From an uncultured Treponema sp. (lineage in GTDB: Bacteria > Bacillota_I > Bacilli_A > Acholeplasmatales > Anaeroplasmataceae): DNA of 52,208 nucleotides. The stretch is taken from NCBI GenBank assembly GCA_963633325.1, contig CAVGYR010000001.1, positions 1 through 52,208 of the forward strand, given 5' to 3'. A model generated the notes under the pieces. It ran no database searches and had not been told where the DNA came from. It saw only the letters and a list, made by a program, of their open reading frames with translations. Positions 1,717 through 50,766 of this stretch are shown piece after piece. The translations under genes were made by a program, and so were the position numbers. Positions within the stretch are counted from its first letter, which is position 1. Each line of letters starts with the position of its first letter.

Positions 1717-3194
1717 ACGATAATCCTACTGTAGTAACAAATAAATATAATTTGAAAGATGCAGTGGATATTTCTAATTTAACTAAAGGTCAATTAGATG
1801 CTTATATAAATATAATAGAATGGATTAAAACTCCTTTTAATCCTTCTGATTTTAAAAGAGCTATAATTGGTTCTGCTGGTGTCGGTAAAACTTTTCTACT
1901 TAAAGCTATTATTAAGAATTGTAATATTTCTTATTCTCAAATAGGAATTTCTGCTCCAACACATAAAGCAGTAAGAGTTATTAGAACTTCATTAAGTAAT
2001 ATAAAAGGAGTTAAAATTAATACTCTTCAATCTGATTTTGGTCTTAGACTTAATTTTAATGTTGAAGATTTTAATATTAATAATCCTCCTTTTGACCCTA
2101 GAGGTAAAATTAAAATTGATAATTATAGTTTATATATAATTGACGAAAGTTCTATGATAAACTTTGGACTTCTAAAGTTTATGGAAAGAGAATTTATTAA
2201 AGAACATTGTAAAGTTATATATGTTGGTGATAATTATCAATTATGCCCCGTAGGAGAGATTACAGTTCCTGCATTTAAATCTATTAAAAGTTTTAGTCTT
2301 ACAGAAATTGTAAGACAAGATAAAGATAACCCTTTACTAGATGTTCTTAATATGCTTAGAAATGATATTAAAAATAAATCTTTTACATTTCTAAATTATA
2401 TAATTAAGAATAAAATTAGTTTAGATGATACTTTAACTAAAGGATATGAAGTTTTAAATGATGAAGAATTTAAGAATAGAGTTAAATTAGAATTTAATAG
2501 TGAAGAAATAACTAAAGATGTAGATCATGTAAGAGTTATTTCTTATACTAATAATACAATTGCCAGTTGGAATGATACTATTAGAAATAATATTATTTAT
2601 AATGCAGATAAATGTGTTTTAACTAAAAATGATTTAGTTACTAGTTATATTACTATAGTTGATGATTTTAATGATATTATTATCAGAAATTCAGAAGATT
2701 ATATAATACATGACATAGTAAATTATACTCATCCAAATACAAAGATTAAAGGATTTATGGTTAAATTTCAAGCTGTATTTGGTGGTGGCATAACTGCTCC
2801 ATTATTTGTATTAGACCATACTGATAAATTTTCTGTAATCCAATATTGTAAATTATCTAAAGAATTAATTGATTCTGCAAAACAAGCCAATAAAGCAAAT
2901 AGAGCTAAAGCCTGGAAAGATTATTATAAATTTAAAGAAGGTTGTCTTTTGCTTAAAAATATAGCTAAAGCTGATGGTACTATATTATATACAAGAAATA
3001 TAGATTATGGTTTTGCTTTGACTTGTCATAAAGCTCAAGGCACTACTTATCATACAGTTTTAGTCGATATTAATGACATTGTTTATGATAAATATGGTAA
3101 ACCATATAAAAATGCAGAAGAAATTAATCGTAGATTATATGTTGCAATTAGTAGAGCAAAATATAAAGTTTATATGAAATATGACCTTCAATAA
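1692..3194 (+). CDS. SF1 DNA helicase (Dda/RecD/Pif1-like)
   Basis: Walker A GSAGVGKT (nt 1869-1892), Walker B YIIDESSM, TEIVRQ motif, and the C-terminal ALTCHKAQGTTY and YVAISRAK motifs typical of RecD/Dda-type helicases. Confidence 0.85.
   Translation: MEAIKHKIDDNPTVVTNKYNLKDAVDISNLTKGQLDAYINIIEWIKTPFNPSDFKRAIIGSAGVGKTFLLKAIIKNCNISYSQIGISAPTHKAVRVIRTSLSNIKGVKINTLQSDFGLRLNFNVEDFNINNPPFDPRGKIKIDNYSLYIIDESSMINFGLLKFMEREFIKEHCKVIYVGDNYQLCPVGEITVPAFKSIKSFSLTEIVRQDKDNPLLDVLNMLRNDIKNKSFTFLNYIIKNKISLDDTLTKGYEVLNDEEFKNRVKLEFNSEEITKDVDHVRVISYTNNTIASWNDTIRNNIIYNADKCVLTKNDLVTSYITIVDDFNDIIIRNSEDYIIHDIVNYTHPNTKIKGFMVKFQAVFGGGITAPLFVLDHTDKFSVIQYCKLSKELIDSAKQANKANRAKAWKDYYKFKEGCLLLKNIAKADGTILYTRNIDYGFALTCHKAQGTTYHTVLVDINDIVYDKYGKPYKNAEEINRRLYVAISRAKYKVYMKYDLQ
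2246..2258 (+). repeat. GC-rich dispersed motif copy 1 (CCCCGTAGGAGAG, 1 mismatch)
   Basis: Read directly. Inside the helicase CDS, translated PVGE. Confidence 0.6.
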
Positions 3195-3339
3195 GCAATT
3201 ATGAATATAAATTTTATCTACAAATGATTTATTTTGATTTATATGACACAATTTGTTGAATATGATGCAATCATATATCAATAAATTTAAACGCTCTATA
3301 AATCAAAATTTAAGTATTAATTATATAATCTTATAAATT

Positions 3340-3771: not shown

Positions 3772-4327
3772 TCCATGTGAACAATGCGCTCTTCGTTTAT
3801 TTAATAATAAGTGTCATAATCTAAAAGGTGTAGGTAATCCTATTTATGGTAAAATAATAGTTGTACCTAATGTTGATTATTTGGCTTATAAAAATAAATG
3901 TATGTCATTTAGTAAATATGTGGAAATAATAAATGAAGTTCTACACTCTTCTACGGGGGGGATAGATGATTATTTTATTGTTCCTATTATTCGTTGTAGT
4001 ATTGTTGATAAATGTCCTTTAACAGAAGATATAATTAAACGTTGTCTAATTCATACTATAAAAGATATTAATAATACAAATGCTATTAAAATTCTTTTAT
4101 TAGGTGATGCTGCTCGTTATTATTTAGGAATTAGTGATATTTCCACTTATACTAATACTTTATTTATAAGTAAAGAACGTAATATTCGTGGATATGCAGT
4201 TTCTTATTCACCTTTTGTTAAATATACAGATTCAACAAAATATAATGAATTTTGTGATAATTTACTTAAATGGTATAATGCGTGTAAAGACAATAAATAT
4301 AATGGATATGAAATTAAAGTATTGTGA
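3764..4327 (+). CDS. uracil-DNA glycosylase superfamily protein (family 4-like), tentative
   Basis: N-terminal CEQCALRL...GVGNPIYGKIIVVPNVD resembles the CxxC plus glycine-rich start of family 4 UDGs. It sits immediately upstream of PolB and is translationally coupled to it. The canonical GE.PG and HPS motifs are not clearly present. Confidence 0.4.
   Translation: MNNPCEQCALRLFNNKCHNLKGVGNPIYGKIIVVPNVDYLAYKNKCMSFSKYVEIINEVLHSSTGGIDDYFIVPIIRCSIVDKCPLTEDIIKRCLIHTIKDINNTNAIKILLLGDAARYYLGISDISTYTNTLFISKERNIRGYAVSYSPFVKYTDSTKYNEFCDNLLKWYNACKDNKYNGYEIKVL
3946..3958 (-). repeat. GC-rich dispersed motif copy 2 (exact, reverse orientation: CTCTTCTACGGGG on + strand)
   Basis: Read directly. Inside the UDG-like CDS, translated SSTGG. 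Confidence 0.8.
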
Positions 4328-6597: not shown

Positions 6598-8016
6598 ATG
6601 AAAATGACAGAAGAAGAATTAATTAATAAAGGAGTAGAAGAATGGAAAAATAATAAAGGAATAGGTACATTTATTATATATAAACCTATGAATCCATTAT
6701 TGGTTTTGTCTTCTTCTTTTCCTAGACTTTTTAATAGAAGTCCAACAATGTTTATAGTAATAGTAGTCAATAATTTTGAAGATAGAAATAATATTATTGA
6801 CTATTTAACTAAATCTGAAAATGAAATATATAATAATTCATATAAATCATTATTATCTAAAGGTAATATCAAAATATGGACTAAAGAGTATATTGAAGAT
6901 AAAATAAATCGAATATATCCTCATTTAGTTGTATATTATAATCCGAATAGATTTGATGATATAGACGAATCTTTATGTATAAAAAGTAGATTTAAACTTA
7001 TTATATTAAATAAAATATTGGATAAGGATTCTATGAATACTATTCATGATGTAAGTCCTGTTATACCTATATTTAAGCAAAAAGAACTTGATGAACTACG
7101 TGTAAACCGCCCCGTAGAAGAGTATAGAATTGGTTTGACTATTATAGATGATAAAACTAATAAACTTCTAAAATATTATAATGAGGAGATTAATCGTAGT
7201 ATTTGTATATTTGGTAGTTTAGATAATATAAATATTGCTAGAATAGGAGATAAAAATACAAATATGTCTGCTATTGGATATTGTAATACTATTGCTGAAT
7301 TTAATGGTTGGCGATATGATTTAGATATGACTAGTGAATTTAATCGACAACTTGACGAAATATATAATCCGAATTCTCTTAAAGAAAGAGCTGATAATGT
7401 TTATGATATTATTAGAAAACGTGGAGTTCTTATTGCAAATAATGAAATTAAACTACAATCAATTTTAGATATAGTTAAAGCAAATAATGACAAACGAATT
7501 TTAATTATAAGTAAATATCCAGATTTCGCTACAACTATAACTGAATATTTGAATAGCAATTCTGATACTACTATATGTATGAATTATCATAATAAACTCG
7601 AAAGTATCCCAGCTTGCGATATAGATGGTGATCCTATTTATATCAAAAGCGGAATAAATAAAGGTGAAAGAAAGATGATGGGAGTTATAGGACAAAAGAA
7701 ATTGGCACAACAAATGTTCAATTTAAACAAAATTCATGTTCTATCTGCAAATAATCTTCCTGATGATTCTTTAGATATATATGTAGATATTGTTATTTTA
7801 ACTAGTTCATTTTGCGAAGATATTCAAACTTATTTTTATAGAATGACCCATATAGAGTTTGCCAATAAAGTAAAACTCTATACATTATTTTGTAAAAATA
7901 GCATTGAAGAACGTGCATTTGAAAACAAAAAGCTAAATAGAAATCATATTATTGTTAATTCTAGTGAAATTGAAGTTATAGATGATAAAAATTCTGATAT
8001 TATTCTTGTGGATTAA
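6598..8016 (+). CDS. SF2/SNF2-like helicase C-terminal-domain protein, tentative
   Basis: The C-terminal half (RILIISKYPDFATTITEYLN ... IHVLSANNLPDDSLDIYVDIVILTSSF) resembles the helicase C-terminal lobe. I see no Walker A GxGKT in the N-terminal half. Confidence 0.35.
   Translation: MKMTEEELINKGVEEWKNNKGIGTFIIYKPMNPLLVLSSSFPRLFNRSPTMFIVIVVNNFEDRNNIIDYLTKSENEIYNNSYKSLLSKGNIKIWTKEYIEDKINRIYPHLVVYYNPNRFDDIDESLCIKSRFKLIILNKILDKDSMNTIHDVSPVIPIFKQKELDELRVNRPVEEYRIGLTIIDDKTNKLLKYYNEEINRSICIFGSLDNINIARIGDKNTNMSAIGYCNTIAEFNGWRYDLDMTSEFNRQLDEIYNPNSLKERADNVYDIIRKRGVLIANNEIKLQSILDIVKANNDKRILIISKYPDFATTITEYLNSNSDTTICMNYHNKLESIPACDIDGDPIYIKSGINKGERKMMGVIGQKKLAQQMFNLNKIHVLSANNLPDDSLDIYVDIVILTSSFCEDIQTYFYRMTHIEFANKVKLYTLFCKNSIEERAFENKKLNRNHIIVNSSEIEVIDDKNSDIILVD
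7110..7122 (+). repeat. GC-rich dispersed motif copy 3 (exact CCCCGTAGAAGAG)
   Basis: Read directly. Inside the 6598..8016 CDS, translated PVEE. The extended match AACCGCCCCGTAGAA is shared, in reverse complement, with copy 4. Confidence 0.8.
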
Positions 8017-10945: not shown

Positions 10946-10980
10946 TATGTAATTGTTGTTAGTGCTAATGGTTTATGTAG

Positions 10981-11018
10981 GGGTAACTTTAGATATAAAT
11001 TCTAAGGTTACCCTTTTT
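10981..11018 (+). terminator. rho-independent terminator
   Basis: 10-bp stem GGGTAACTTT/AAGGTTACCC (one G-U pair) with a 13-nt loop, followed by TTTTT. Confidence 0.7.
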
Positions 11019-11030
11019 ATTATATCTATT

Positions 11031-12263
11031 ATGAAACGTAATGTAAATACATCTAAGCTTACTAAAGAGTTTATTGAATCTAGAATTAGTCAAGAACAAA
11101 TTGTAAGTAAATATTTAAATATACCTATAGATACAGTTAAAGACTGTATCGAGTATAATCATTTAATCAAATCTGTATTTAGAGATGATGATACTGATGG
11201 AAGCATGGGCATTACTTATAATAAAAAAGGTAGACTTAAAGTTAGAGATTTTGGTGGTAGTGGTTTCTTTGAAGATGTATATGGAGTTGTTGCTTATGTT
11301 TTAAGTATAATATACGAAAGACCTATTAGTACAAACAATAAACGAGATTTTTATTTTATTCTTACTCATATTTATAGAACATTTAGTGATGCTATTGATA
11401 ATAGAATTTATCAAAATCAACTAGATGTAAATATACAAAATGCTATAAATAAAGGTAAAAATAAGAAATCTATTATAGAAATAGTTCCTAGAAGTTGGAA
11501 TAAAGATGATAAAGAATATTGGAATAAATTAGGTATAGATTTAGGTTATCTTAATACCCATTTTGTAATACCTGTTGAACAATATTACATTAATCGTCTT
11601 GTTTATAATGAACCAAAATATTATTATAAACAATCTGACCCTTGTTATGCCTATATGTTAGGAGTTAATAAAGAAGGTATATATCTTATTAAACTTTATT
11701 TTCCAAAACGTAATAGACATATTGAATTAAAGTTTATAACTAATTGTAATGTTCTAGAAGGACTTCCTAATTTAGAAAGAAATGATTATGATTATATAAT
11801 TATAACTAAATCTAGTAAAGATAGATTAAGCATTGGTAGTCATTTATCATTACAACCTTTCTACGGGGCGGTTGGAAATAAACTTAATATTGGAATTATA
11901 AATCTTCCTAGTGAAAATTATAGATTAAAATCTAATGAATATATATGGTTAAAGAAAAAATTAAATGAAAATGGTTTAATTATAAGTCTATTGGATTTTG
12001 ATGCTACTGGTAGAAATGGAGCAAAATATCTTTTAGAAACATATAATATTCCATATATATTTATTACTAGAGGCGAATTTGGATTAGAAAATTATTCTGA
12101 TTGCAAAGATTTTGCCGAATTACATAATAAGTACACAAAAGAAGAAATTAATCAATTTATTAAAGAAACTATTAAATATGTCGAACTACAATTCAGAAAT
12201 AAAGAAATATGTGATACCAATGCCTATAGTAGATTGCTTTCAGAGTTTGATTTGCCATACTGA
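11031..12263 (+). CDS. DNA primase-like protein with Toprim-type DxD motif
   Basis: LLDFDATGRNGAKYL resembles the Toprim DxD/AG segment of DnaG-type primases. The start is set at the ATG at 11031 (MKRNVNTSKL) because the ORF-track start at 10953 runs through the terminator hairpin. Confidence 0.45.
   Translation: MKRNVNTSKLTKEFIESRISQEQIVSKYLNIPIDTVKDCIEYNHLIKSVFRDDDTDGSMGITYNKKGRLKVRDFGGSGFFEDVYGVVAYVLSIIYERPISTNNKRDFYFILTHIYRTFSDAIDNRIYQNQLDVNIQNAINKGKNKKSIIEIVPRSWNKDDKEYWNKLGIDLGYLNTHFVIPVEQYYINRLVYNEPKYYYKQSDPCYAYMLGVNKEGIYLIKLYFPKRNRHIELKFITNCNVLEGLPNLERNDYDYIIITKSSKDRLSIGSHLSLQPFYGAVGNKLNIGIINLPSENYRLKSNEYIWLKKKLNENGLIISLLDFDATGRNGAKYLLETYNIPYIFITRGEFGLENYSDCKDFAELHNKYTKEEINQFIKETIKYVELQFRNKEICDTNAYSRLLSEFDLPY
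11856..11868 (-). repeat. GC-rich dispersed motif copy 4 (CCTTTCTACGGGG on + strand, 2 mismatches)
   Basis: Read directly. Inside the primase-like CDS, translated FYGA, a different frame from the other copies. Confidence 0.6.
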
Positions 12264-14672: not shown

Positions 14673-14700
14673 AAGTCGGCTATTAATTTAGTCGACTTTT
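14673..14700 (+). terminator. probable terminator hairpin
   Basis: 8-bp stem AAGTCGGC/GTCGACTT (one G-U pair) with a 10-nt loop and a short T run, 5 nt after the stop at 14668. Confidence 0.45.
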
Positions 14701-14713: not shown

Positions 14714-14726
14714 TCCTGTAGAAGAG
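14714..14726 (+). repeat. GC-rich dispersed motif copy 5 (TCCTGTAGAAGAG, 2 mismatches; GTAGAAGAGTATA identical to copy 3)
   Basis: Read directly. Intergenic. Confidence 0.5.
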
Positions 14727-21295: not shown

Positions 21296-21308
21296 CTCTT
21301 CTACGGGG
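21296..21308 (-). repeat. GC-rich dispersed motif copy 6 (exact, reverse orientation)
   Basis: Read directly. Starts 2 nt after the stop at 21294. Left arm of the hairpin. Confidence 0.85.
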
Positions 21309-21337
21309 AGGATAAAATTAAGCCGCCCCGTAGAAGA
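21297..21337 (+). promoter_or_regulatory. 12-bp GC-rich hairpin made of two inverted motif copies
   Basis: TCTTCTACGGGG (21297-21308) pairs perfectly with CCCCGTAGAAGA (21326-21337) across a 17-nt loop. It is intergenic, between the 21037..21294 gene and dut. No immediate T tract follows. Confidence 0.6.
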
Positions 21338-21338
21338 A
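21326..21338 (+). repeat. GC-rich dispersed motif copy 7 (CCCCGTAGAAGAA, 1 mismatch)
   Basis: Read directly. Right arm of the hairpin. Confidence 0.85.
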
Positions 21339-22675: not shown

Positions 22676-25600
22676 TTATCTAAGATCTTCAGCAATAGAT
22701 TTAACAGGAATAACACTAAGAATATGTTCTCCCATATTATAATAACTATTACTTTTGCTTAAACCTGTCATATTACTCCACTGTCGATATATTGGTATTT
22801 GTCGTTTAATTCTAACTGCAAATTTATTTTCGCCTTTATATCTACCAGTACTATAATTCCAATCAAAATCATCGTCCATAATAGATTGACTTATAACGTT
22901 AAGAGCATCATAAATATCTTTTGGACCATTGAGACCAGCTATAGGACTACTCCAAAGTGTTTTAGCTTGACTAGGTAAAAATAGAGGATTAAACATCATA
23001 GATTGTGTAGCTAAACCATCAGCTTCTCTAAGCATAAGATTTGCAAACATATTCTCTTTAAGTTCATCATCATCCCATATAATTCTAGTACCAATAGCTA
23101 TACATATTGCAGCTAAAGCTCCAAATATATCTCCTGTTGCTCTAAGAATTGCAGCTCTTTGATAACCCGGAAGAGTATTCCAATTTAATCTTAAGTTTTC
23201 AGCAAAATTTATATATGCTTTAAATAAACTTTGTGTACCTTCAAGAGCATTTAATTCTTCATCGGTCAACATTTTCTTACGGTCATTGTATTGACGAATA
23301 GGCATTGTAATAAAATCATAAAGAGCAGGTCCACAACCTATTTCATTTGCTCCTAATTCTTCATTAAAATAACCTTTCTTTCTCCAATGTTTAAGAATAC
23401 CAGGATATATATGCTTATGATATTGTGTAATTAGACTACCAAACCAATATTTTTCTAGTTGAGCAGCACCTAATCTATCATAAACACCGTGAATCTCTTT
23501 ATTTGTTGCAATAACTCTACCTTTAAATTCGCCTAAAAGAGCATAAGCATCATTAAGTTCTCCAAATGTTGAAGTTGTACTTAATTCTTGCATTTTAGAA
23601 CCATTTTTAAAACCAAGTTTACCGTCAACTAAATCTAATTGTTCCATTATAGACGGAAGTGTATCAAACTTTTCTTTAGCTTTAGTTTCTAGTTCTTTAC
23701 GTTTAGCATAAAACTCTTTCTTTTTGCTATTATTAAGATAAATGTTAGCAAATTCTGTCGCTATATCTTTTCTATTTCTAGCATAATCTTTAAGTTTATT
23801 TTCATCAGATTTTATAGATTCAATAAACTTCTCAAATTTAATTGCAAGTGGAGTTCCAGCAAGTAACTCTTTCATAGCCTGTTCATGAAGTTGTTCAGTA
23901 TATTGAAACAAATTCATAATTCTATATGGAAGCCTTCCTTTAGATTTATAATCTTCTACTTCTATAAGTTTACAATCATATAACATAGCGAACATCATAC
24001 CGTTTTGCATCATATGTTCACCCATAGCATTAGGAGAATACATAAAATCTCTAAGACGTTCTATAGCGTTATGACTATCAAAATTACCTTTTGGTCTACC
24101 TGTAACTTCATCAAAATCTACAACATTCATTGCTTTAATTATAGCATCTGCCAGTGTTGTGCTTGTTTCAGAGTATAATCCTCTAATAAAACTAAGAGAA
24201 TTTTTATACCACATTGATTTGCCTTTTTCCCAATTTGCATTACCTACAAATTGTTTAGCAATATGTTCTCCAAATATAGCACTTCTACCAACAGTTATAT
24301 TTTCTATACCTCCAATGATATTTAACATCATAAATTTAGCACTAGTAAGAGATTGTACAATATTCATACCTTTAGTTATTTTTGCATTAGGCATTTTATA
24401 ACTATCGAATAGTAATCTACTTCCCCAATTACTTAATTGCTTATATAATCGTTCATCGATTTCTTTATGATATGCTGTAACATCTTTAGTACTTTTAGAT
24501 GTATCTTTACGAAGTCCTTTATAACCAAGATTACTTTCTAGTACTTCTTGAGTTCCAACCATATCTTGAAGATAATAGAATAAATATTTATTATCTTGAA
24601 CTGCATTGAAATGCCCAGCAAGAGAAATAAATGTAGCTATATTTTCAACAAAGTTTCTATTAAGATTTTCAACATGAATTTGTTCATTTATTTTTTCTGC
24701 TTCTTCAAGTCTCTTTTTATGTTCTTCAAAAGCTTTATTAAATTCTTCATCGGTAGAATAATCCTCTTTACGGGGAGTATTTCTTTTTATTTCTTCTACA
24801 TCAATAGAAGCTTTAGTTTTAAGTTGCTTTATTAACATAGGCATAGCTGGAGTAAAATCAGTAGTATAATTCATATGGTCTAATAAATCTTTATTTCCAA
24901 TTTTATTTCCATAATCACTCCAACCAAAAAATTCTCCTACCTGTTTAACAAACCATTTAAGATCTTGTTGAGCAAGAGCTTGAGCATTAGGCAGATAACC
25001 TTCATCTATGTATCGTTTACTTCTTTGATCATGTACTAATTTATTTAAAGTAGTTTTTACATATTCAAGTGTTTCTTTTTCTGCATCATTAAGTTCTGTT
25101 TTATTTGTATAAGTATCATCTACTGCATCGGTTTTATAATTACTTAAATTGCTAGAACCTGTTCCTTTATATGCGCTATTTTCATACTCTTTTTTTGGAG
25201 TTTTAACTTGTTGAGCATAATTAGGTTTCCATTTCCCATTAGCATAATCAGGAACTACACTTGTTTTTTGCCATATACCTGTAGGTTCATATGAATGTTT
25301 ATATGGATTCCATATATGATTTCTTTCGTACCATTCTTTAAAATAATCTTCTCCTTTACTTCTAGCTTCTTTCATAGCTTTTACATAATATGGAGTTCGA
25401 GTTTGTTCAAGATACTCATTAATTATTCGTAATGCTCTATTTTTATCACGCATTTCTTGTTCTAATTCTTTTCTTTTTGTTTTACTTTTTATTAAACCAA
25501 AGAATTTATCTTCATCTAAAACAAGATTACCATATAAAAATCTATTAGGATGACGTTTAGTTAAATCATATAACATATTACCATCACTATCTTTTACTAC

Positions 25601-28600: not shown

Positions 28601-31600
28601 TTTATTTTCGATATTTTCTTCTTCTGTTTCTACATCTTCATTTATTTCTGAATCATTTAACGAATCTTCATATGCTTGTGCAGCTTCTGCTTCTGACATA
28701 TTTACAGGAACATCAAGTTCTATTAAATAACCATGAACTGCATCCATATTAAGTTGATTAACCCAAATTCTACCTTTTCTTTCTTTTTTAATTTCTTTAT
28801 GAGGTATAAATTTAGCATCTGAATGACTTCTTACGTAATCTTCTGTTAAGTCTCTATCAGTAATCACATTCATGTTACTTCTTATTTGAGACATTAAACT
28901 AAGAGGATTACCTATTTCGTCTGTAAACATATCGTCGTTCCGAAGAATACTATTTTTAATTAGTTTATTAATAGCTCCTCTTCTAATTTTATTTCCTTCA
29001 ATAACAAATGCGTATTTAATTAAATCCATTGCAGTTAATTTAATCAAAGGATTAGATGATGTAGCTATATCTTCAAATAAAGTATATGCAGTCTCTGTAT
29101 CAATACTATCTTCTTTAAACCTAATAGATTGTGCAGGATATTCTTTATTTCCTACTTTATAATTATCATAAAGATCTACAGCAATAAAATCAAAAATACC
29201 TCTTTCTTCTGTGTTTGCTTGTAACCATGCAACTTTTTGAGCAGGACTAAGATTACTCCAAGCATCAATTTCTGCTTGAGTAGGATGTACAATATCTTTT
29301 ACTTTAAAAGATACAACTTGGGGTCTATTATAACCATAAATTCTAATACGTTCTTGTGTATCAGTTCTATTTATAAATTCAACCCGCCCCGTAAGAGAGC
29401 TTATGGTATAAGCTTTTTGCATAGCTATTGTATTAACAGCGGCATCAGCAATTATATAGTTTTCAAAATCATTATATTCATCTTCTGTAATATCTCTATT
29501 AACACCAAATGCTTTTTGAAGTCCAAGTACTTCATTTATAAAATCTGTACGTTGAGTATCAAATATCATGCTATTTATAAATGTAGATGTAACAGAAGAC
29601 CATTTTAAAAATGAATTAAGAGATCCATATGCTCCTTGTTCTATATTTTTTAAATATCCTATTTTATCTATTCTACCACGGTCATCAATCAGTCCCGGAT
29701 ACATTGCTTTAAGAAATGGTTGACCATTTATTGTAAGCATTTTAGCAGATTTAGTTTGACTATATTTTGCAATTTTTCTAAATACATTATTAGTAGCAAA
29801 TATAGTTTGTTTTGCACCAAATCTATCAGGATTACATACAGTTACTAATTTCTGAATATTTTGACTTACTCTATTTATATCATTATAAGCCATTATAATG
29901 TCATATTGTCTGTCTAAAGAAACATCTTCTCCTAATTTAACTTCATATGCTAATTCGGTTGCATCTAATATAATTTTATTATTCTTAGAAATACTATAAT
30001 TTCTAGAAAACTTTTCGTTAAGAGCTTTTATCAATGATTTAGTAGTATATATTCCACTAGTATCAATACCTGCATCTTCAGCTAAAGTTCTTAATGCTTC
30101 TTGTATAGGTTTAACACTTTCTTCTGTATAAAGAGATTTTCCTTTATTATATTCTCTAACTATTCTAGTAATAGCTGGATGCATTATAAATGCAACAGAA
30201 GTTTTATAATTGCTACCTATATCAACTAAAGTTTTATATACTCCAAAAGTAAAATCATTTACATTAGGAATAGCACCTTCCTTAACAGCATCAAGAATAT
30301 GAGCAGTTGTTTCAGAACTATAAGATGTTAATATATTTCCATCTACTTGTTTATTATCATTAGTCCATCCAATAGTTAAATGACATACAACATTATCATC
30401 GTTTACATTAGATATACCTTCTTCTTCAAAATCAAAACGTTTGTGCAATTCTTCATTTGAATAGTTAGAATATCTAATATATATTCCATTATCAGAATCT
30501 ATTTTTGGTTTAGCAATATTACATACAGAACAGAACGTATCACGAGTAACACTAAATGCTTTAAGTTTTGCACCACTCATAACATCTTCTTGATATTCTG
30601 CTTGATTAAGAAAATCAAAGCAACTTCTATTCTTACGAGCATTTTTGGTTTTACTATCAATAATACTGTCACGAGCTTCAATAATATCTGTAAATTTAGA
30701 TTGACCTGTATTTTCTTCAAATGCCTCATCTGAAGACAAAATTTGAATCATTATGTCAGCAATCTTATTACTTCTTTGCTTAGTTGAATTTATATCAAGT
30801 GGGTCAGATTGTATAAATTCATCATAAGTCATTAATCCTAATTCTTTAGCTTTATTATTAAATCTGTCAATTCTATCTTGCAGAATTTCTTTAGCTTTAA
30901 TATTTCTGTAATTACGTTTATCTGTATATTCATTAGAAATAGCGTCTACTAAATCGCTATGCACATCTATAAAGTTTTTATCTGCATCATCTAATTCTTT
31001 TTTATTTTTACTTAAATAATTAGCAACAAACTCTAACTGTTCTAGATATCCATCTTTCGTTAGTTTTCCAGTTTTAGCATTAACACTATTTGTTTTAAAT
31101 TTAGTGTGTGCTTCTTTAATAATTGCTTTACTTTCATCAGAAAGTTTATCGTATGCAGCACTTTCTTCATCAGATAATTCTTGACGAAGTTCATTAAATT
31201 TATCATCTAATTCTTTTTGTAATGCTTCAAATTTTGATTTAACAGATTTATCTTTAATTTTATTTATTTTGTCAAGATGTTTATTTATATAATTTGCATA
31301 ATCATAAATATCTGGTTTTTCAGAATATTTTATCTTTCTTATTTTTCCTGTATTATCAATATAAGTAGAATGTTGAATTCCATATACTGAATCAATATCG
31401 AAGTCAGAACCAGTTTGAGATACCCAGTTATCAGGTACTACAATAGTACTTCCTAGAGCATCATCAATAAAGCCAACAACTTTCATTAAACAAATAGATT
31501 GTTTACCTTCAGTAGGAATACGATAACCTATAAATTGATCTAACCCTTCATCTTGAAGTTCTTTCAATAATTCATCATCGGATTTATCATATGTTCCATC

Positions 31601-36803: not shown

Positions 36804-39800
36804 TTATCGACAAGACACTGAAATATCAGCAGAATTGATTAAATCTATAAATTTTGACCTTTCTGACATTGGTAAGTCGCTAACTGCATCATATAATGTT
36901 GGATATGTATTAAATTCCTCATATTCTGTTGTAGCAGAATCCATATTTTCAAAATCATCGCAATTATAATCATCATTTGAATCAAAACCTGGTTTATAAT
37001 CATCATCTTTTGTATCAGTTATATCTGTATTACCGATTTCTTCTTCTTGATTATTATCTGTATTATTGTCGATATTTGTTTGATTATTATTTGAATCATT
37101 TGTATCATCATTTCCAAATAAATCTCCTTCTTTAGGTAAATTACTTGAATCAGATTCAGTATTATTTATTTTCTTTTCTGTTTTTTTAGTTTCTTTTTTA
37201 GTTGGTTTTACATTATTATTTAATACTTCACTTAAAGAAATAAGTTCTTTTTCTCTAAGAGAACCTTTACGAATAGTAACATCAAATAGTTTTCCAATAA
37301 AATCAAGAATTTTCTGCCAAGCATTTTTATGATTTGCTGAATTAGAAGTTTTAGCATCAATTCCATTAAGATACCTCATAAGATCAATTCCAGTAAAACT
37401 TTCAACAATAAATTCTTCAAGTGCTTCATATGTTGTATTGGATTGACCCTTATTTTCATATGATTCTTTTCTAAATTGTTTTAATTGTTTAAATAATTCA
37501 GGAATATTTGCATATATAGAAGTATCTATATGACGTCTATTTATTACTTCATCTATATTACCTTTTTCAATACTTGCAATATCTTCATCTAAAGCTTCAA
37601 TAAAGTCATCATAAATATCTTGCATACTTCTATAAAGTTTTTCTCTATTTTCTCGTTTAGAAGCATGTATTGCTCTATGGATATTTTCGTGTAGTAATAT
37701 ACGTATAGCTCTATTATTACTACCTTGTTTATCACTATCTACTATATCCATAAATTTTTGACCTATAATAATTTTTTTATCTTTAAGTCTATATGCAGCA
37801 TTTGCATCATTGGTATTTGATTTTAAATATTCATCGTCAAATATAATATTTCCGCTAAACAATCTACTCAATATATCATTATCGTTAAGTTTATTTAGTA
37901 AATCAATACCTGTTTTATTTGTAATTAACAGTTTGGCAATATCTAAAGTCTTACGATTTGATTTATTTTTTAATATATCAAGTATTTGAGTTGAATAAGG
38001 AACATTAACAGGAAGACTCTCTTCTACGGGGTGGCTTTCTGCATTATCATTATTTGTATTATCGTTATTGTCATCATTTGTATCATTTATTAATTCAAAT
38101 GATGCAGTTGGAGCAGCTCCTTGTTTAATTAAATTTATAGTTCTATAATTACTTCCGTGTTCATCTTTTGCTAAATCTACTCGAACAAGATTATTTTTAA
38201 ACATAAAATCATCAAATGAATTATAGTCTAAATGAATTCCATTTTTACCATTAAATTCATCTATGTTTACAATAAATCTTCCTTTAAATTTATAGAAAGC
38301 ATTAGCATTTGATGTTCTTCTATTAGTTCTAGGATTTGCAAGAGAAATATTAATACTAAATTTACCATATTCATCAATCATTTTTAATAATGTATCTGAT
38401 AATTTAGTTCTATCTGTATTTGCCAACATATTTAAATTTTTTCCTATGCCTGCAATCTTAACTCCTGGAAGACCTCCTTTATTAGAATTTCTATAGAAAG
38501 TTACTTGTAAATCATCGTTTACTTTAAAATGTAAGTTATTATTACTATCTGTAAATGTATTTATTCCATCAAATATACTATCATTTCTTCTATTAAATAT
38601 TTTATTTATAAAATCTATAAGATTATAATAATCTTCTACAGTTTTTATATTATTTAATCTATCTTTTATTTGTTCTTTTACTGCATTTACTATATTATTA
38701 AAATCTTCTCCAATTTTAACTTTTTGAGTTTTGCCGTCTCTAGTATATAACGTTTCTTTGATTTTGACAGGATAACAAACAACTAAGTCTACAGTACCAT
38801 TTTCTCTAAATACAGCAAGTCTGGTTTGACCATATTCTTGAGCATTATCAACAGCTCTAGTATATCGTTCTGTACCTTTTCCTTTAACTGTCAATCCATT
38901 ACCATCATTTACTGCAATAGTCCAATTCTCTAAATCAGTACCAATAGCTTCTTGTATAGGTAACGCACATACATCAGGAGTAGTATTTTGAGTATCTTTT
39001 GCTCTAATAAGTTCGCCTCTAGACACATTTACTGCCTTAGCTTTTATTTCTTCTCCAGATTCTAATCTATTTTGCAAATCTAAAGTTTGGTTGTAACTAT
39101 CTCTAAGTTTATCATAAAATAAATCAATACTATCTGATAAAGCATTACTAGTTTTATTTTTATAATTCCAAGCCCAAAGCTTAGCTAAACCTTTTAATGT
39201 TACATCTAGTTTTGATTCATCTACAATTATACCCTGTTTAATTAAATTTTTAATTAATTCATTATTTTGTATATCTTTTACAGCATCAGCAATAGAATAG
39301 TTATCAAATGCAATTTTATGAATAATTTCATTTAATAATCTATGATTATCAGTCGCATTGTTAATTATGTCTTTAAGAATTTCTTTTAATCCTTTAGTTC
39401 CATTATCATCATGACTTGCATCTTTACCAACTCTAAATCTTAAATTATTATTTACTTGAACAAATGCTCCAGTATGAGGATCTATATCAGGAATACCTAA
39501 ATATCCAACTACACCATCTTTAGAATTAACAGTTATTATTAGAGTTTGTTTGTGATTTTTAGCTGTTAAATTTAATGTAAGTTCATCATTATTTCTAAGT
39601 TTATATTGAGCTTCTAATGCTGCATTTACATCATCTGCGTCATCAGTTATGTTTTCTACGTCTAAACTAAAAGATTTAACTAAATTTGCAGCTTTCTTTT
39701 CAATAGCACGTTCAGATGGTTTTTTAGCAACATTTTTGAGCATCAATTCTTCATTCATAGCTTCAGCAGAATCGGTCATATAAAAAGTATTTTTACCTTC

Positions 39801-42800
39801 TTCTGTACTAAAATAAGCTAATAATGAATTATAAACAAATTCTGCATTATGTTCGTTAGGTATAGTATCTTCTATATATCTAAGTAAATCTTCAAAATTA
39901 CCATAATATTTACCATTAAGTGTTGGAAGATTTACGGTTTTAGCATATTCTGTAAGAAAAGACTTAACTGTTTCTGCAAAACCATCTACAAATTTAGTAT
40001 AATTTCCTTCAAGTTCTTGTGTGGCACATTCAAGTGTCAAGTTACCAACAGCACTTTGTCTTTTATTTTTAGATGATATATATAAAATTCTTTTTTTCCA
40101 AGAGTTTAATAAAGGTTCTATATCACTTTTTTCATATCCATCACTAAGTAATTTATTAAATATGTTATTAAATTCTTCATCAATATTTACATCTTCTCCT
40201 TTTTTAACTCTTCTACCAATATCACCAACATATGATAACAATACTTCATTATCTAAAACTTTTTTATTATCATCTTGTTGTACAGTAGGTCCGGTAGTAG
40301 GCGTTGTAGTGGTAGTTGGAGGTGTTGTAGTTGTTGTAGGAGGAATTATAGCTGGAGGCACTGTTACAGGAGAAGTTTGTTGTGTTGTGTTAGTTGTTGA
40401 CACACCCCCCGTAGAAGAGTCTGCATTTTGATTTACACCAATTTCTCCTTTACTTATTATTTTAAATCCTCCTTTATCATCAACTTCGATTATAGGATTA
40501 GATATAACTACACCTCCGTTAGTAATTTTCTCTGTACCATTATACAGTTCATCGTCATTAATATCAGTATTAGAATATGGTTCAATTCTATATTGACCAT
40601 CAGGTAAAACACTACCATCAACAGCTCTATTACTTGCTTTATATTCAGCTTTATCTTCTTTCGATTCATTAGTAAATGTTTTTTTATCCATGTTTAATTT
40701 AATAAACATTTCAGACGGATGATTGCCGCCGTTTGATTGTGTAAGATTCGTATTTTGCTGAATTGTTTGCGTTACGGCTTGCTCGGGTGTTGTTGGTGTA
40801 GGATTGGTCGGTTGGGTTAAAGAAAGTGGCTTAGAGGGCTTTATTTCCTTTTGTTTTGACGGTTGAGTATTTGTTGATTGAGTATTAGATTCATCATCTT
40901 CATCATCATTTTTATTTCTAGCAGGAGAAATAGTTTTTATAAGTGATTCATCAAAATTGATAGCATCTTCTATTTGTAAACCGAGTCTATAATTTAATTG
41001 AGAACTAAGATTAAGACACTCTACTGCATCTTTAAAAGCAGTTCTATCAACTGGTTCTAGAATACTTATAAGTTTATCAAATTCAGCAGCGTTTCCTTCA
41101 TAAGCTGCACCAATAGATCTACTAAGTTCACTTCTGTTATCTTTATATTTTCTTACTATATCACTAATAGTCTTATAACTTTTTTCTATAACTTTTTTTC
41201 TAGCATCTTGCATAGTTTGATTCATAAATGAAATTTCACTAGCAAGTTCATCTCTATTTGTTACAATTTCTTTTCTCTTGAAATCAATGTTCATTTCTGT
41301 TGCAGTTTTATCCAACAGCAAATCCATTAATGATTTTTTAGTACCAGCTATACCTATACCATTAACTTCATCTAAAACTGAAGCTAGTTTAGTATCATTC
41401 GATAAAGCTTCACTATTTTGTTCAAAAATAGTTTTATCTTCAAGATAATCTGTAAATCTACCGCTTATACCATATTTTATTACATATTCGTCTAATTTCT
41501 TTAAATATTCTTTTCGTTTAGTATCAATTTCGTTACCTTCTATATCAAGTAAATTCATTTTAAGAATATCATCTAATTCTTTAGCTGCTCCTGTAAAAGC
41601 ATCACCTAATTTCGGAACTACAAGTGTTCCATTTTTGTCATGTTTTGCAGTAATTGCTAATTTGACTGCTCTACGAAGATTTTGTGGAGTTAGCATATTT
41701 TCTATAACTGCTATATTTTTATTTATTCTATCTATAGCAATTAAAGAACTTAATGTTCCAGCAGTATTTGGATTTGATTTTAAATCATTTCTTTGAGCAT
41801 ATAATTCAGCTAAATTTTGTTGTAGTAAACTTTGACTAGCAAATTGTTGTAAATCATCTATAGATACATCATTTAATTTACTTGCTATATTTTCGTCAGA
41901 TAAAGCTGAATTTATAAGTTGCTCTGTTCTACTTAAATTATTTCGAAGTTGATTTACTGTTTGATTATATTTTACATTTTGAGTAGCAATCGACTGAAGA
42001 AATTCAAAAGGAACTATTTCTTTATCTTTTCTTGTAACTTTGTAATTGTTTGCTATATTTATAACCTTTTCTAGTTCTTGGTTATAATTTTCCATTACTT
42101 GGTCGATTTTTCCTAATAATCTTTGTTGATGTAATTTAGAATCAGATTCTGAAATAACTCCTTGTTTGACAAGTGCGTCTCTTACTTCATCACTTTTTAT
42201 AAATTCTCTAAGATATCCTAGATTACCTCTATGAGCAGCTTGAATTGCCATATCTGTAATTAAATCATCTTCGCTTTTAGATGCAGCTGCACTTCGTTCT
42301 TCGTCGGTATTTAGAAGTTTATCATCTTCTGCTATAGAATATGGATTTTTTCCATCTTTTATTTGTTTAGCCCTATCAAAAAATGTACTAAATGTAGCAG
42401 ACCAAGATTCCATATTTGATTTACGAATCTTTGTTTCAGTAGTTTCAGCTAAACTAAAAGGAGAACGTTTAGCAGTTTCTCCAGTCTTATCATTTTTCTT
42501 TTTTTCTTCATTAGCTCTATCGTTAAATGTAGCTTTTACTTTACCAAATGCACTTCCTAGATGATGAAATACTACACCTCCCATAACACCCCAAAATGCG
42601 CTATCCCATAAGCCACCGCTTTGCATATATTTTGCAAGTCTATTATCGAATCCAGATTTATCTCCTTCTTTATCGTCAAGCAGAACTCTTCCTAGATTCA
42701 TACCTTCCATTTGCGAAATATAGTTTACAGATTCTTCTACACCTTCACTTAATTCACCAGCAATAATAAGTTTCTCATTCTTTGCTCTATCTACAATTGA

Positions 42801-47130: not shown

Positions 47131-47142
47131 ATTAATTAAGTA

Positions 47143-50100
47143 TTATTTAAAAATGATTCTTTTTTTATAACTAGGTGACATTCTAGAAAGTATTAATCGT
47201 TTTGTATTTGGATTAGTTTCTCCATTATAAAATTTAGCTAATTGACTATCATCAAATGTATAACCCATATTTAACATTCTAGCAAGAGAACCCTTATCGC
47301 TAGCAGCAATTGCTGCAATTCTAGATTGATTATCTTCAAATGCACTTCTACCAGCAGTATAGAAATTAGTCCATGCTTTACTTAATCCACTAAGATTTGT
47401 TGAAATGTTTTGTGCTTTAGCCATAGAATTTGCATTTTGAGCAGCAATAGCAGCATTTTTAATTTGAGCAACTTGATTAAAGTAATTATTCTTAGCAGCA
47501 GCATTTCTAGCGCGAACATTCTGTTCATTTGCAGCAGCTTGATTTCTAAGTTCTACCTCTTTATTACTCTTTTCATCAAACAATTTATTAGTTTCAGTCA
47601 AAGCATCAACATCTGCTTTTTGCATACGACTTAAACTAGTTTGAGCACTAGAAGTATTTCCTTTAATTAAATTTCTTGTATTCAATCTATTTCTTTCTAC
47701 AGCAGCTCGTTGCGCTTCATTATGATATGTAGTATCGAATGCTACAGGACTTTCATCTACATAACTAGGTAAAGCATAATTGTAGTTTAAATTGTCATAT
47801 GCTGAGTTACCTATAATCATACTTCCTAATGCACTTAATGTATCAATTCCTAAGCCTACATAATCTCCAGGTTTAAATATAGTATTTGAATTATTATTTA
47901 CATTAAATGAGCCATTTACATCATAATCATTATCTATTAAACTAGGTCCTTTATATACAATAGGATTACTTATTGTAGGAGTAAAGCCAGTAATAGGATT
48001 ATTCATCATCGAATTATAATGTATATTTGCTAAAGATTGAAGATTTGCATTAGTTTTATTGTATGGAGGATTTATTTGGTCATTAAGATAATAAGTATTA
48101 GTACCAATAAGTGCTTTAGGTCTCATACCTCTTATAGGGAGGCTATAACCACCAAAACGTTTAGCTATTCTACGGGAACCGTATCTTCTATTCTGTGCTT
48201 CTTTTTTTTCGTCAGTTTCTTTATCGGTAGTATATCTATTATACTTACCTGCATTATATTTAAATGTCTTAGCACCATTACCTCTAGCTTCATCAAATGC
48301 GTCATTAAAATTATCACCTACACGAGAATAATCTCCTTCACCATATATTTTATTACCTTTATATTTACCATTTTCATCATAATCGTATCTTATTTTTAAT
48401 GTAGTATCAAATATGGAATTACCTCTTCTAACATAAACCCTATTGTTAATATTTTTAGTTTGATTATCGTGAAATCCACTAATAATGTCAGATTTATTAC
48501 TTTGTTTACTATTAGTGTTAGGTTTAGAATTATTATTTTGTTTATTCTTACTATTAGTATTATTACTTTGTTTATTATTGCTATTAGAAGTTTCTGTAGG
48601 TTTAGCTATATATTGAGATATAGGTTTGCCGTGAGCATCTAATTGAGTATTAGATTTAGTTTTATTATTTGATTTAGATTTATTTGTTGGAATAAATTCT
48701 GTTGCAAGTTTAAATCCACTTGCTGCTGTTCCAGCTCCAGTAGTCCAAAACAAAGCCTTTTTTAATTTATCGTTTATAGATTGATTAGGATTAGGAATAA
48801 AATTCTTATAATTATTAGCATTATTACTTGACTTAAACTTATTTTTTATTCCTTCTTTAATACCATCTTTAGTTGTATTTATTTTTTCTTTAATAGTATT
48901 TCTAACATCATTTCCTTTTGCTTTAATATTAGCTATACCTCTACTTAAACCAGATTTAAGTTGTTCACTAGTTTTGAAATTTGTATCAGGAAGCACATTA
49001 GTTAATTTTTGTCTAGAAACATCCATGGAACGTTTAATAGTATTTATAACACGATTTCCAACAGAAGAAGAAGTATATAAAAATGGATTTGCCCCATTAG
49101 TCATATTTTTAGCTAATATAGGAGTCATTAATTCTTCACTTTTATAAGTTGGATTATAAAGTGCTTTACTTTTACCTACAGGAACTTTAATTCCTAAATT
49201 ATTATAATAATCTTTGATAGATTTAATAGTATGTTTTGCTACTTCTCTATTTTGAGAGTTAATAGCTGTTTGTCTAACCTCACTAGCGTCCTTAACAAAT
49301 TGCTCAATTTTTGCTGGAGATGTTCCTCTAAACATAGGAAGAGCTACTGCATCTACATTATTTTCTGTATTGTCTGGATCACTTCCCATACCAGTAAGTT
49401 GATAAATATCTCTAAGCATCGGTTTATATGCAGATGGATCAACTAAACCACTTTCATATAAAATAGATGCTAAAATGTTATTCTTTCTATTTTTTGCTGA
49501 CCAATTCGATATTGGAGTTAAAAAACTTTTATCACTTTCATATATATGATATGGATTATCTACACTTTCGACTTTAGTTCCAATTTTAGCTTTCTTTCTA
49601 AGTTCAGGATATTTGTTATAAATTTTACTTCTAATATCGCTTCTTCCATGAAGTCCTGCTAATCGTAAAGCATCAATAGCATCAGATTTAGTTGGAATAG
49701 GATAAGTACGATTAGCACCTGCAAAATCATCAACTGATACATTAGGATATGGATGAATAGAAGAGCCTCTATCTTTAGATGTTAATCCTCCATAACGTTT
49801 TGATTTATCAATAAAATTTTGTATCACATTATCTGCCCCAGGAACTAAAGTAGAATATACTTTAGATTTATCGTATGCATTTTTAGCATTAATCATTTTA
49901 CGAGCATTAATTATATTTTTATTAACTTCGTATGCACGTTTAGCATTTCTAAATAATTTTGCTCCTCTAATTATACTTCCAGCACCAGCTAAATCCCCCA
50001 TTGCTCTAAGAACGGTCCAAGCCCCTTGTTCGATACTAGGATGTTTATAAAATTCATAAGCATCTTGTATAGTACCAATAACAGGTAAATAAGAACTTAC

Positions 50101-50766
50101 AGTTTTAGCAGCATTAATATAATCGTTGGTTCCTAATTCTGCTTTTCTTCCATCGTCTTTAATTCCATTAACTTTCTTAAATCTTTGTTGAGCATTAAAC
50201 ACAGCATCTTTATTATAACCTCTCATTACAGCTTGAGCAGGGCTTACACCGCCAAGTATAGGTTGAGCTGAATATATACGTAGAGAGTTGCCCTTACGTT
50301 GAGCAACTTCACCACCTTCAGCTTCTATTTGATTACCACCCACATTGATACCTATACCAGTCTGACCAGTTTCATTAATATCCTCGTGAGAACCTCCCCG
50401 TAGAAGGTATGTGTTGTTTCCTATTTTTTTAGCGTTACCACCATCAGTTATTGAAATATTATTATTACCTAGATGTTTAACTCCGCCAATTCTATATTTA
50501 AGGTCATAATTTTCAGAATTAGCATAAGAATCATTTGCGCTAGCTGCATTATTTAATGTACTAGCTAATTGATTATCTCTTGTAATTTGTGCCTGTTGCC
50601 TAGCTAATTCTTGTTGCTGTTCTAAAGCTCGTTTTTGTGCTCTAGCTTGAGCACTAGTTGTGATTAAACCTCCAACAGTAGATATTGTTGAACTAATCAA
50701 TGAAGGAATAACAGAACCCCAAAATGCTTGAGGTCTATTACTAATTCTTATTCTTTGTTTATTCAT
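47143..50766 (-). CDS. large hypothetical virion-module protein
   Basis: 1,207-aa ORF with an N-terminal hydrophobic segment (VIPSLISSTISTVGGLITT), an Asn/Lys/Ser low-complexity tract (about nt 48490-48690) and a Gln/Ala/Asn-rich, probably coiled, C-terminus. Confidence 0.6.
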   Translation of the reverse strand: MNKQRIRISNRPQAFWGSVIPSLISSTISTVGGLITTSAQARAQKRALEQQQELARQQAQITRDNQLASTLNNAASANDSYANSENYDLKYRIGGVKHLGNNNISITDGGNAKKIGNNTYLLRGGSHEDINETGQTGIGINVGGNQIEAEGGEVAQRKGNSLRIYSAQPILGGVSPAQAVMRGYNKDAVFNAQQRFKKVNGIKDDGRKAELGTNDYINAAKTVSSYLPVIGTIQDAYEFYKHPSIEQGAWTVLRAMGDLAGAGSIIRGAKLFRNAKRAYEVNKNIINARKMINAKNAYDKSKVYSTLVPGADNVIQNFIDKSKRYGGLTSKDRGSSIHPYPNVSVDDFAGANRTYPIPTKSDAIDALRLAGLHGRSDIRSKIYNKYPELRKKAKIGTKVESVDNPYHIYESDKSFLTPISNWSAKNRKNNILASILYESGLVDPSAYKPMLRDIYQLTGMGSDPDNTENNVDAVALPMFRGTSPAKIEQFVKDASEVRQTAINSQNREVAKHTIKSIKDYYNNLGIKVPVGKSKALYNPTYKSEELMTPILAKNMTNGANPFLYTSSSVGNRVINTIKRSMDVSRQKLTNVLPDTNFKTSEQLKSGLSRGIANIKAKGNDVRNTIKEKINTTKDGIKEGIKNKFKSSNNANNYKNFIPNPNQSINDKLKKALFWTTGAGTAASGFKLATEFIPTNKSKSNNKTKSNTQLDAHGKPISQYIAKPTETSNSNNKQSNNTNSKNKQNNNSKPNTNSKQSNKSDIISGFHDNQTKNINNRVYVRRGNSIFDTTLKIRYDYDENGKYKGNKIYGEGDYSRVGDNFNDAFDEARGNGAKTFKYNAGKYNRYTTDKETDEKKEAQNRRYGSRRIAKRFGGYSLPIRGMRPKALIGTNTYYLNDQINPPYNKTNANLQSLANIHYNSMMNNPITGFTPTISNPIVYKGPSLIDNDYDVNGSFNVNNNSNTIFKPGDYVGLGIDTLSALGSMIIGNSAYDNLNYNYALPSYVDESPVAFDTTYHNEAQRAAVERNRLNTRNLIKGNTSSAQTSLSRMQKADVDALTETNKLFDEKSNKEVELRNQAAANEQNVRARNAAAKNNYFNQVAQIKNAAIAAQNANSMAKAQNISTNLSGLSKAWTNFYTAGRSAFEDNQSRIAAIAASDKGSLARMLNMGYTFDDSQLAKFYNGETNPNTKRLILSRMSPSYKKRIIFK
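48165..48177 (-). repeat. GC-rich dispersed motif copy 12 (CTATTCTACGGGA on + strand, 2 mismatches)
   Basis: Read directly. Inside the 1,207-aa ORF, sense translation GSRRI. Confidence 0.45.
50396..50408 (+). repeat. GC-rich dispersed motif copy 13 (CCCCGTAGAAGGT, 11/13)
   Basis: Read directly. Inside the 1,207-aa ORF, sense translation LLRGG. Confidence 0.7.

Follow-up and report, generated by a model that had tools for sequence, protein, structure and literature searches.

The closest match in genomic distribution to the element described here is given by the uptake signal sequences (USS) of Pasteurellaceae and the DNA uptake sequences (DUS) of Neisseriaceae, which accumulate in competent bacteria via uptake bias. 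Their spacing has been reported to be significantly even (PMC1939737). The element studied here is a 13-mer, CCCCGTAGAAGAG, dispersed over a stretch of 52,208 nt (contig CAVGYR010000001.1, positions 1 to 52,208; hereafter the window) that is part of a crAss-like phage genome. Like USS and DUS, it is an over-represented oriented word with an extended flank, present in both orientations, located mostly in open reading frames (ORFs) and forming some intergenic inverted pairs. In contrast to them, it is carried in about 30 copies by a phage that is lytic or plasmid-like; since a crAss-like phage genome is not a competent bacterium, uptake bias cannot explain the motif. It also differs from USS and DUS in that its spacing is even within each orientation class and not over all copies pooled, and in that half of the word changes between lineages.

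The 13-mer of the window is the form taken in this phage by a cis-acting DNA word that is shared by seven genomes of the Intestiviridae, i.e. the window, cr8_1, MH552500, cr271_1, Carjivirus communis (the prototype crAssphage, or p-crAss), crAss002 and cr11_1, the last over its first 50 kb. This word is kept by selection on nucleotides, within genes in either sense as well as between genes. In the window (27% GC) five exact copies of CCCCGTAGAAGAG are found against 0.00 expected from 100 dinucleotide-preserving shuffles, and the 11-mer CCCCGTAGAAG has seven exact and two one-mismatch copies against 0.09 expected. The original prediction, made by eye, had listed 13 sites with the same numbers of exact 13-mers and 11-mers and had guessed at less than one chance copy of the 11-mer; recomputation agrees with it on all these points. 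A scan allowing up to two mismatches recovers 12 of the 13 sites and no extra ones; the remaining site, 24764(-), is also correctly placed and corresponds to a one-base deletion variant, TCCCCGTA-AAGAG. All 11 CCCCG pentamers of the window fall within motif copies. The flank CCGCCCCGTA common to four copies and the 15-nt complementarity of copies 3 and 4 (7110 and 11856; AACCGCCCCGTAGAA), both pointed out earlier, are also present as described.

A further degenerate copy, CTCCCTATAAGAG, lies at 48129-48141(-), 36 nt from 48165(-), and it is this copy, not 48165(-), that is the true orthologue of a cr8_1 site. As both have the same orientation, the orientation pattern is unaffected. The total thus reaches 14 copies, 11 of them intragenic in seven ORFs and three in two intergenic regions. 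The original count of two intergenic regions holds, while that of at least eight genes was too high. Ten of the 13 copies first listed are intragenic, with about equal numbers in sense and antisense.

The constraint is on nucleotides and not on the peptide. The copies are translated, as first noted, in several frames and senses (PVEE twice, PVGE, SSTG twice, FYGA, LLRG, TPRKE, SLTG and SRRI), and they use codons that counting confirms to be rare in the window: CCC for 10 of 429 Pro, GGG for 20 of 818 Gly, ACG for 27 of 985 Thr and CGG for 3 of 652 Arg. When codons were resampled synonymously, with the codon usage of the window and the proteins held fixed, essentially all nine intragenic copies were lost and the three intergenic ones stayed. 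A peptide-level or codon-usage artefact is thereby ruled out, and chance, codon usage and protein sequence all fail to account for the copies. A codon-shuffled control had been named beforehand as a check on the nucleotide-level constraint: it does not reproduce a similar frequency, the intragenic copies vanish, and the constraint is supported by this as by the translations.

In every Intestiviridae genome examined a related word is the top over-represented k-mer, with 19-32 sites per ~93 kb within and between genes. The forms are CTCTAGCC[G/C]CCCCGTAAAAGGTATGTA in cr8_1 (28 sites), (TAGCTC or GACCTC)CCCCGTAGAAGGTATG in MH552500 (22-24 sites, depending on the score threshold), TAGCTCCCCCGTAGAAGAGATG in cr271_1 (19 sites), (GACC or TACT)CCCCGT[A/G]GAGGATGGA in the prototype crAssphage (32 sites), TTCCCCC[G/A]TAAAGGAG in crAss002 (31 sites) and GACCCCCCGTAGAGGA in cr11_1 (17 sites in 50 kb). 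The deposited cr8_1 sequence, in which a motif copy is split by a 55-bp terminal direct repeat (92659 and 46 are one site), was trimmed to 92,613 bp for the statistics. Over 145 sites, from the window and five complete relatives, the consensus reads T-A-N-C-Y-C-CCCC-G-T-A-R-A-R-G-R: the T after the C-run and G is invariant and the next six positions are 100% purine. The core is thus constant and the purine half lineage-specific, an A/G switch at the first purine being seen even between strains of prototype crAssphage, i.e. within one species. The first 50 kb of crAss001 (Steigviridae) contain no CCCCGT motif. In the same 50 kb, CTTCTGGA/TCCAGAAG occurs 20 times against ~1 expected, in a loose (A/C)TCCAGAAG(R)GA context and unevenly spaced; this may reflect a peptide.

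Conservation in relatives, which the original prediction had named as a test, is found in all seven genomes, often at orthologous positions. This is the case in the SNF2 gene (sense, ~500 nt in), in the primase gene (antisense, ~900 nt in), in the uracil-DNA glycosylase (UDG) gene in Obtuvirinae only, in the gap after the ligase operon, for a pair in the 1207-aa ORF and for a tight inverted pair near the module junction. At four sites common with relatives of 60-69% amino acid (aa) identity, 54 of 64 motif columns are invariant vs 275 of 494 in the flanks. At the intergenic site 14714, comparison with relatives leaves only the motif and a covarying terminator stem retained. Among three strains of prototype crAssphage, column differences amount to 3.0% in the motif vs 4.5% in the flanks (P=0.02), and the changes are at degenerate positions. 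One strain of prototype crAssphage, LMMB (MT006214 61203-62498), has an annotated reverse transcriptase adjoining the tail-collar fibre gene, where the reference has no such annotation; it may be a diversity-generating retroelement.

Beside its sequence, the spacing of the motif on each strand is conserved. There is about one copy per 5-9 kb per strand, and the coefficient of variation (CV) of the gaps between copies of the same orientation is 0.25-0.50 in every genome, the only exception being the partial '+' series of cr271_1, with 0.70. Values of 0.8-0.9 are obtained with random placement, and the observed evenness has P<=0.002 in every genome. When orientation is ignored, the CV of the gaps between all copies is 0.51-0.88, with a negative correlation between one gap and the next (-0.42 to -0.65). 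Permuting the gaps with the order of orientations fixed does not reproduce the low per-strand CV (P<=0.009 for cr8_1, MH552500, p-crAss, crAss002 and the 50-kb piece of cr11_1). When the 126 same-strand gaps are pooled, not one falls short of 0.25x the mean, where 27.9 would be expected, and not one exceeds 2.5x the mean, where 10.3 would be. Five of nine series are individually significant even if the null is a hard-core one with the minimum gap of each series, and the Fisher combination of the nine gives P ~3e-5. Exclusion of short gaps alone, as from instability of close direct repeats, is rejected as the cause of the evenness because long gaps are depleted as well. With both tails depleted, distances on each strand are therefore tolerated only between a minimum and a maximum.

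This evenness accounts for the most conspicuous feature of the window, the alternation of orientations. All 12 pairs of neighbours among the 13 copies first listed do alternate (label-permutation P=0.0006), as the original prediction had stated; the probability of 2^-12 given with it assumes independent sites and does not stand, the value being ~0.10 given even same-strand spacing. In relatives, alternating neighbours number 22/28, 18/22, 12/19, 22/32 and 26/31, with runs of four copies in the same orientation in cr271_1 and in the prototype. Even the two nearest relatives, L133 and L135, have adjacent '- -' copies because the 2246(+) site is lacking there. In cr11_1 only 8 of 16 alternate, since + and - copies are mostly co-localised in pairs. 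When one strand series was rotated at random, the expected vs observed alternations were 10.0/12, 22.2/22, 17.8/18, 11.7/12, 23.8/22 and 23.1/26 (P 0.11-0.99). As rotation reproduces the observed values, alternation is a by-product of even per-strand spacing, and the two strand series are independent. It is thus not the organising principle first proposed: relatives break it, and it never exceeds what two independent even series yield. The phase between strands is free, interleaved in the window and co-localised in cr11_1, where, over the first 50 kb, paired + and - copies are mostly 40-400 bp apart and of both polarities. More generally, alternating orientation of dispersed repeats can come from per-strand spacing alone.

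The two series are not always equally full. In four of the five complete genomes the replication genes have the C-rich form of the fuller series on their coding strand; in the fifth the series are equal. In cr271_1, 13 evenly spaced copies extend genome-wide on one strand and six lie on the other, these six being confined to 31.9-86.4 kb (~59% of the genome). Such an asymmetry would fit use in one direction genome-wide and in the opposite direction over about half of the genome.

The copies of the window can be followed from left to right. The first, CCCCGTAGGAGAG with one mismatch (2246..2258, +), is in sense in the superfamily 1 (SF1) helicase ORF 1692-3194, where it encodes PVGE; it is the copy without counterpart in L133 and L135. 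An exact copy at 3946..3958 (-) is antisense to ORF 3764-4327 (UDG by synteny) and has orthologous copies in L133, L135, cr8_1 and MH552500. Another, of the extended form CCGCCCCGTAGAAGAG (7110..7122, +), encodes RPVEE in sense in the SNF2 ATPase ORF 6598-8016 and is matched in Obtuvirinae genomes, prototype crAssphage, L133 and L135. Antisense to the primase ORF 10953-12263 lies CCCCGTAGAAAGG, with two mismatches (11856..11868, -); its orthologous copies are in cr8_1, MH552500, p-crAss, L133 and L135, the degenerate one of MH552500 having been predicted before it was found. The degenerate copy TCCTGTAGAAGAG (14714..14726, +) is intergenic, 16 nt past a terminator hairpin, and at this position L133 and L135 carry a perfect CGCCCCGTAGAAGAG amid diverged flanks.

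An exact copy at 21296..21308 (-), upstream of the dUTPase operon, and CCCCGTAGAAGAA, with one mismatch, at 21326..21338 (+) are the left and right arms of an intergenic tight inverted pair. The 4680-aa ORF contains the one-base deletion variant TCCCCGTAAAGAG in sense (24764..24776, -) and CCCCGTAAGAGAG, with two mismatches and a CCG flank, in antisense (29387..29399, +). In the 2390-aa ORF an exact copy in sense (38019..38031, -) encodes HPVEE and a second exact copy is antisense (40407..40419, +). The 1207-aa ORF holds the degenerate copy absent from the earlier list, CTCCCTATAAGAG(GTATG) (48129..48141, -; orthologue of cr8_1 27567(-)), and, in antisense, CCCCGTAGAAGGT(ATG) (50396..50408, +; orthologue of cr8_1 29626(+)). 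The degenerate TCCCGTAGAATAG at 48165..48177 (-) is the same-orientation neighbour of the former.

The window is the replication and virion-RNA-polymerase part of a crAss-like phage of the Intestiviridae, near Obtuvirinae. The + strand ORFs up to ~22.4 kb form the replication module, with SF1 helicase, UDG (by synteny), PolB, SNF2 ATPase, primase, ligase and dUTPase, and the giant virion RNA-polymerase block of relatives is represented on the minus strand by ORFs of 4680, 2390 and 1207 aa. The two largest (22676-36718 and 36804-43976) are counterparts of the crAssphage virion RNA-polymerase fusion proteins, and each carries one sense and one antisense motif copy. Gene order is collinear across all relatives compared. 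The nearest database genomes, of subfamily Obtuvirinae, have ~75% nucleotide identity over conserved replication genes; their SNF2 protein is only 44% identical to that of the window. L133 and L135 are relatives at 69% and 60% SNF2 identity, with 10-kb flanks. Apart from these and from a 5.6-kb contig of SRR13434624 that is 99.98% identical to the window, no close relatives for microevolution were found in INPHARED, IMG/VR and JGI metagenomes. No DnaB-type helicase was recognised among the replication genes of the window, where several neighbouring ORFs have no family match, and a sequence search of the primase against solved structures gave no match for its typing.

What does such a word do? 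Polarity together with separate, bounded coverage for each polarity leads us to infer that the reader follows one strand or moves in one direction. The signal would be read with polarity, either on one strand or by machinery moving one way, and would be required at bounded intervals on both strands regardless of the direction of transcription. On these grounds we propose that the motif may mark where synthesis of the complementary or lagging DNA strand starts or is primed, with a probability of about one in three. The constant block (..CYCCCCCGT) would be the recognition element, the next purine (A; A/G in prototype crAssphage) the first copied base and the purine run the first copied stretch. 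The reader, on the G-rich strand, would be the phage DnaG-like primase or another RNA-synthesising enzyme of the phage; without a recognised DnaB-type helicase, the replication genes of the window would offer no candidate for non-specific recruitment of primase. The template trinucleotide on the G-rich strand would be 5'-CTA, TTA or CCA; CTA and TTA serve as initiation sites of some bacterial DnaG primases. The prototype has three tight inverted pairs, of which two (BK010471 28077/28177 and 95745/95869) are located 270-540 bp upstream of its two repL genes; a predicted origin (PMC10983915) coincides with one of these two regions. Among the roles first suggested for the motif, a binding or initiation site for a phage protein is the live option.

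Several observations weigh against a start signal for DNA synthesis. The proposal draws on the architecture and distribution of the motif only, and the primase has no match among solved structures by which to type it. Known DnaG-type primases recognise trinucleotides and not words of ~18 nt, and intervals of ~7 kb exceed typical bacterial Okazaki fragments. The spacing statistics come from related genomes, which are not independent replicates. In cr271_1 the two strands carry 13 and only six copies, and the dependence of a crAss002 variant on gene orientation (see below) is unexpected for a purely DNA-level role. Finally, series sorted by sense and antisense are as even as those sorted by strand, and the two cannot be separated, which leaves room for a role linked to RNA or transcription.

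A broader statement is somewhat better placed, though we would still bet slightly against it: the motif may form a genome-wide lattice of a strand-specific signal of ~18-25 nt, running through coding sequence at fixed per-strand intervals and setting where a polar DNA transaction starts or stops. We know of no class of element that works as such a lattice. The most interesting case, if true, would be sequence-specified starts of discontinuous synthesis, i.e. fixed 'Okazaki units' of ~5-9 kb.

The same polarity could serve a directional helicase-nuclease or resection machine (the phage SF1 helicase with a PD-(D/E)XK nuclease and RecT, or a host enzyme) that is attenuated or switched by the oriented word, as by Chi or a 'self-tag'. 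Copies in both orientations would then be required in all parts of the genome, which would be relevant to circularly permuted, headful-packaged DNA. Orientation specificity with separate coverage for each orientation agrees with this, known Chi sequences have their G-rich strand as the motif does, and RecT, a Gam-like inhibitor and a PD-(D/E)XK nuclease are in the records of relatives; packaging of crAss002 is moreover of the pac-type headful kind (PMC8042965). We nevertheless find this rather unlikely, as Chi sites are host-specific words of 5-8 nt whereas the motif has 18-25 nt, half of them lineage-specific, and phages that encode a Gam-like inhibitor would have no need of a host Chi. The distances from the sites to 28 recombination breakpoints inferred among three prototype strains are no shorter than expected (median 1388 vs 972 bp expected, P=0.94), a weak argument in the case of Chi, which acts over kilobases. 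At a slightly lower level of credence stand polar roadblocks or operators, at which a phage DNA-binding protein sits asymmetrically and halts or regulates transcription from one side, silencing or insulating the genome, e.g. in the plasmid-like state proposed for prototype crAssphage. An asymmetric word in ~30 dispersed copies with a lineage-specific half is what co-evolution with a phage protein would give, some copies lie between a terminator and the next gene, and C. communis has been proposed to live as a phage-plasmid (PMC10983915). Most copies, however, are found within long essential genes, in sense as well as antisense; a sense-oriented roadblock in a 14-kb ORF would come at a cost, and the analysis identified no candidate for a repressor. 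As to recombination, whether at a site-specific (inversion or shufflon-like) target or at the ends of a mobile element, i.e. a miniature inverted-repeat transposable element (MITE) or one resembling repetitive extragenic palindromic (REP) units and bacterial interspersed mosaic elements (BIMEs), alternation would survive events between such sites, and REP units alternate in BIMEs (PMC2817692). We give it hardly any weight. Among the genes cut by an inversion or deletion between copies would be those of the helicase, primase, UDG and RNA polymerase, and relatives are collinear; the inversion target suggested at first would thus break essential genes, and the prototype-strain breakpoints do not cluster at sites. 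The tight pairs occur in both polarities with no fixed terminal-repeat geometry, the units are non-palindromic, and copies occupy orthologous positions across 30-69% aa identity instead of variable insertion points. MITE, REP or inversion systems are rejected on polarity, position and collinearity, and the same 28 breakpoints dismiss a recombination hotspot or module linker at the site itself.

A role in RNA is also improbable, a little more so than roadblocks. The C- and G-forms could pair over kilobases within one transcript to create processing sites, or the G-form could stabilise or process mRNA by way of a small hairpin, in which a UACG/ACG loop separates the pyrimidine run from the G run. 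The arms of the tight pair 21296-21338, 17 nt apart, do form a stem of 12-13 bp on either strand (-36 to -39 kcal/mol vs a background of -18 +/- 6), and pairing of the pyrimidine run of the G-form with its G run is always possible via G.U. Equivalent tight pairs occur close to where the replication module meets the RNA-polymerase module, in cr8_1 (46/113), MH552500 (16535/16635), the prototype (28077/28177) and crAss002 (64741/64780), and across genomes they come in both polarities. In crAss002, CCCCC[A]TA is found in 11 of 15 sense sites and CCCCC[G]TA in 11 of 16 antisense sites (P=0.009), so that CG is mostly retained at sites whose G-form is in the mRNA; it is this dependence on gene orientation that keeps the RNA-level explanation alive, together with sense and antisense series as even as the strand series. 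In cr8_1, CCCC is preceded on its 5' side by G in 12 of 14 sense sites and by C/T in 11 of 14 antisense sites (P=0.002); this bias simply puts G on the coding strand, in line with GC skew. Against pairing, a copy resembles its neighbour no more closely than copies paired at random resemble each other (P=0.32-0.91), which rejects partner-specific pairing and leaves the long-range pairing between partner copies first envisaged unsupported; four consecutive same-form copies of cr271_1 have no partner. A local hairpin is rejected too: although the two runs are always able to pair, there is no covariation, and the paired fraction equals that of the shuffled control (six genomes). Rfam gave no matches at gathering score, and no tRNAs were found.

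Nor is the motif an intrinsic terminator: the terminator scan found no hairpin with a T-run at the tight pair, and single copies, whose units are non-palindromic, have no local pairing partner. The window does contain a canonical terminator of this kind at 14673-14698, after the ligase operon, and motif copy 14714 lies directly behind it. Its stem covaries between the window, L133 and L135 (AAGTCGGCT/AGTCGACTT, AAGCCGATT/AGTCGGCTT and GTCCAACTG/CAGTTGGAC).

Whatever its reader, a conserved cis-element that overrides codon choice ~30 times per genome with regular per-strand spacing must serve a core process. crAss-like phages dominate human gut viruses; few are culturable, and their replication, regulation and persistence are poorly understood. 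The carriers of the motif include the prototype crAssphage, the most abundant human gut phage, and the motif gives a concrete and cheap experimental handle on the biology of these phages. Its lineage-specific sequence is a signature for classifying Intestiviridae contigs. It also means that synonymous sites in these genomes are not neutral.

Full-text searches of the literature, also with the literal motif sequences, turned up no description of the motif, which is unmentioned in papers on C. communis, crAss002 and the phi14:2 virion polymerase; the view that no described element matches it is borne out in this search. Comparison with known systems is nevertheless instructive. The stoperators of Cluster A mycobacteriophages and the C1 operators of phage P1 (which include paired, 'bivalent' sites) are, like the motif, asymmetric words of at least 13-17 bp in tens of copies dispersed over a phage genome; they are read by a phage protein, as the motif would be in the roadblock model. 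Stoperators and C1 operators are situated in intergenic or promoter regions, oriented with transcription. The motif, unlike them, is mostly intragenic, in both senses and evenly spaced per strand.

Chi sequences of RecBCD or AddAB share with it a polar reading on one strand, a G-rich strand and the importance of orientation. They are however host-defined, 5-8 nt long and co-oriented with replication, and are neither evenly spaced on both strands nor specific to a phage lineage; in place of a short host-specific word, the motif has ~18-25 nt and a lineage-specific 3' half. Sites at which RNA synthesis starts (T7-type promoters, primase recognition sites and G4-type single-strand initiation signals) resemble it in their conserved block, initiating purine, purine-rich first stretch and strand specificity, and a primase is encoded near the motif. 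T7 promoters, in contrast, point in a single direction upstream of genes and G4-type signals are folded over ~100 nt, neither of which holds for the motif. We know of no start-site system laid out as an evenly spaced lattice on both strands. REP units and BIMEs are also repeated and GC-rich, and REPs alternate within BIMEs (PMC2817692). REPs are however individually palindromic, extragenic and clustered in tandem, whereas the units of the motif are non-palindromic, mostly intragenic and kilobases apart. Taken with these systems, the motif is a variety of dispersed oriented genomic signal, and there is a substantial chance that its mechanism is new.

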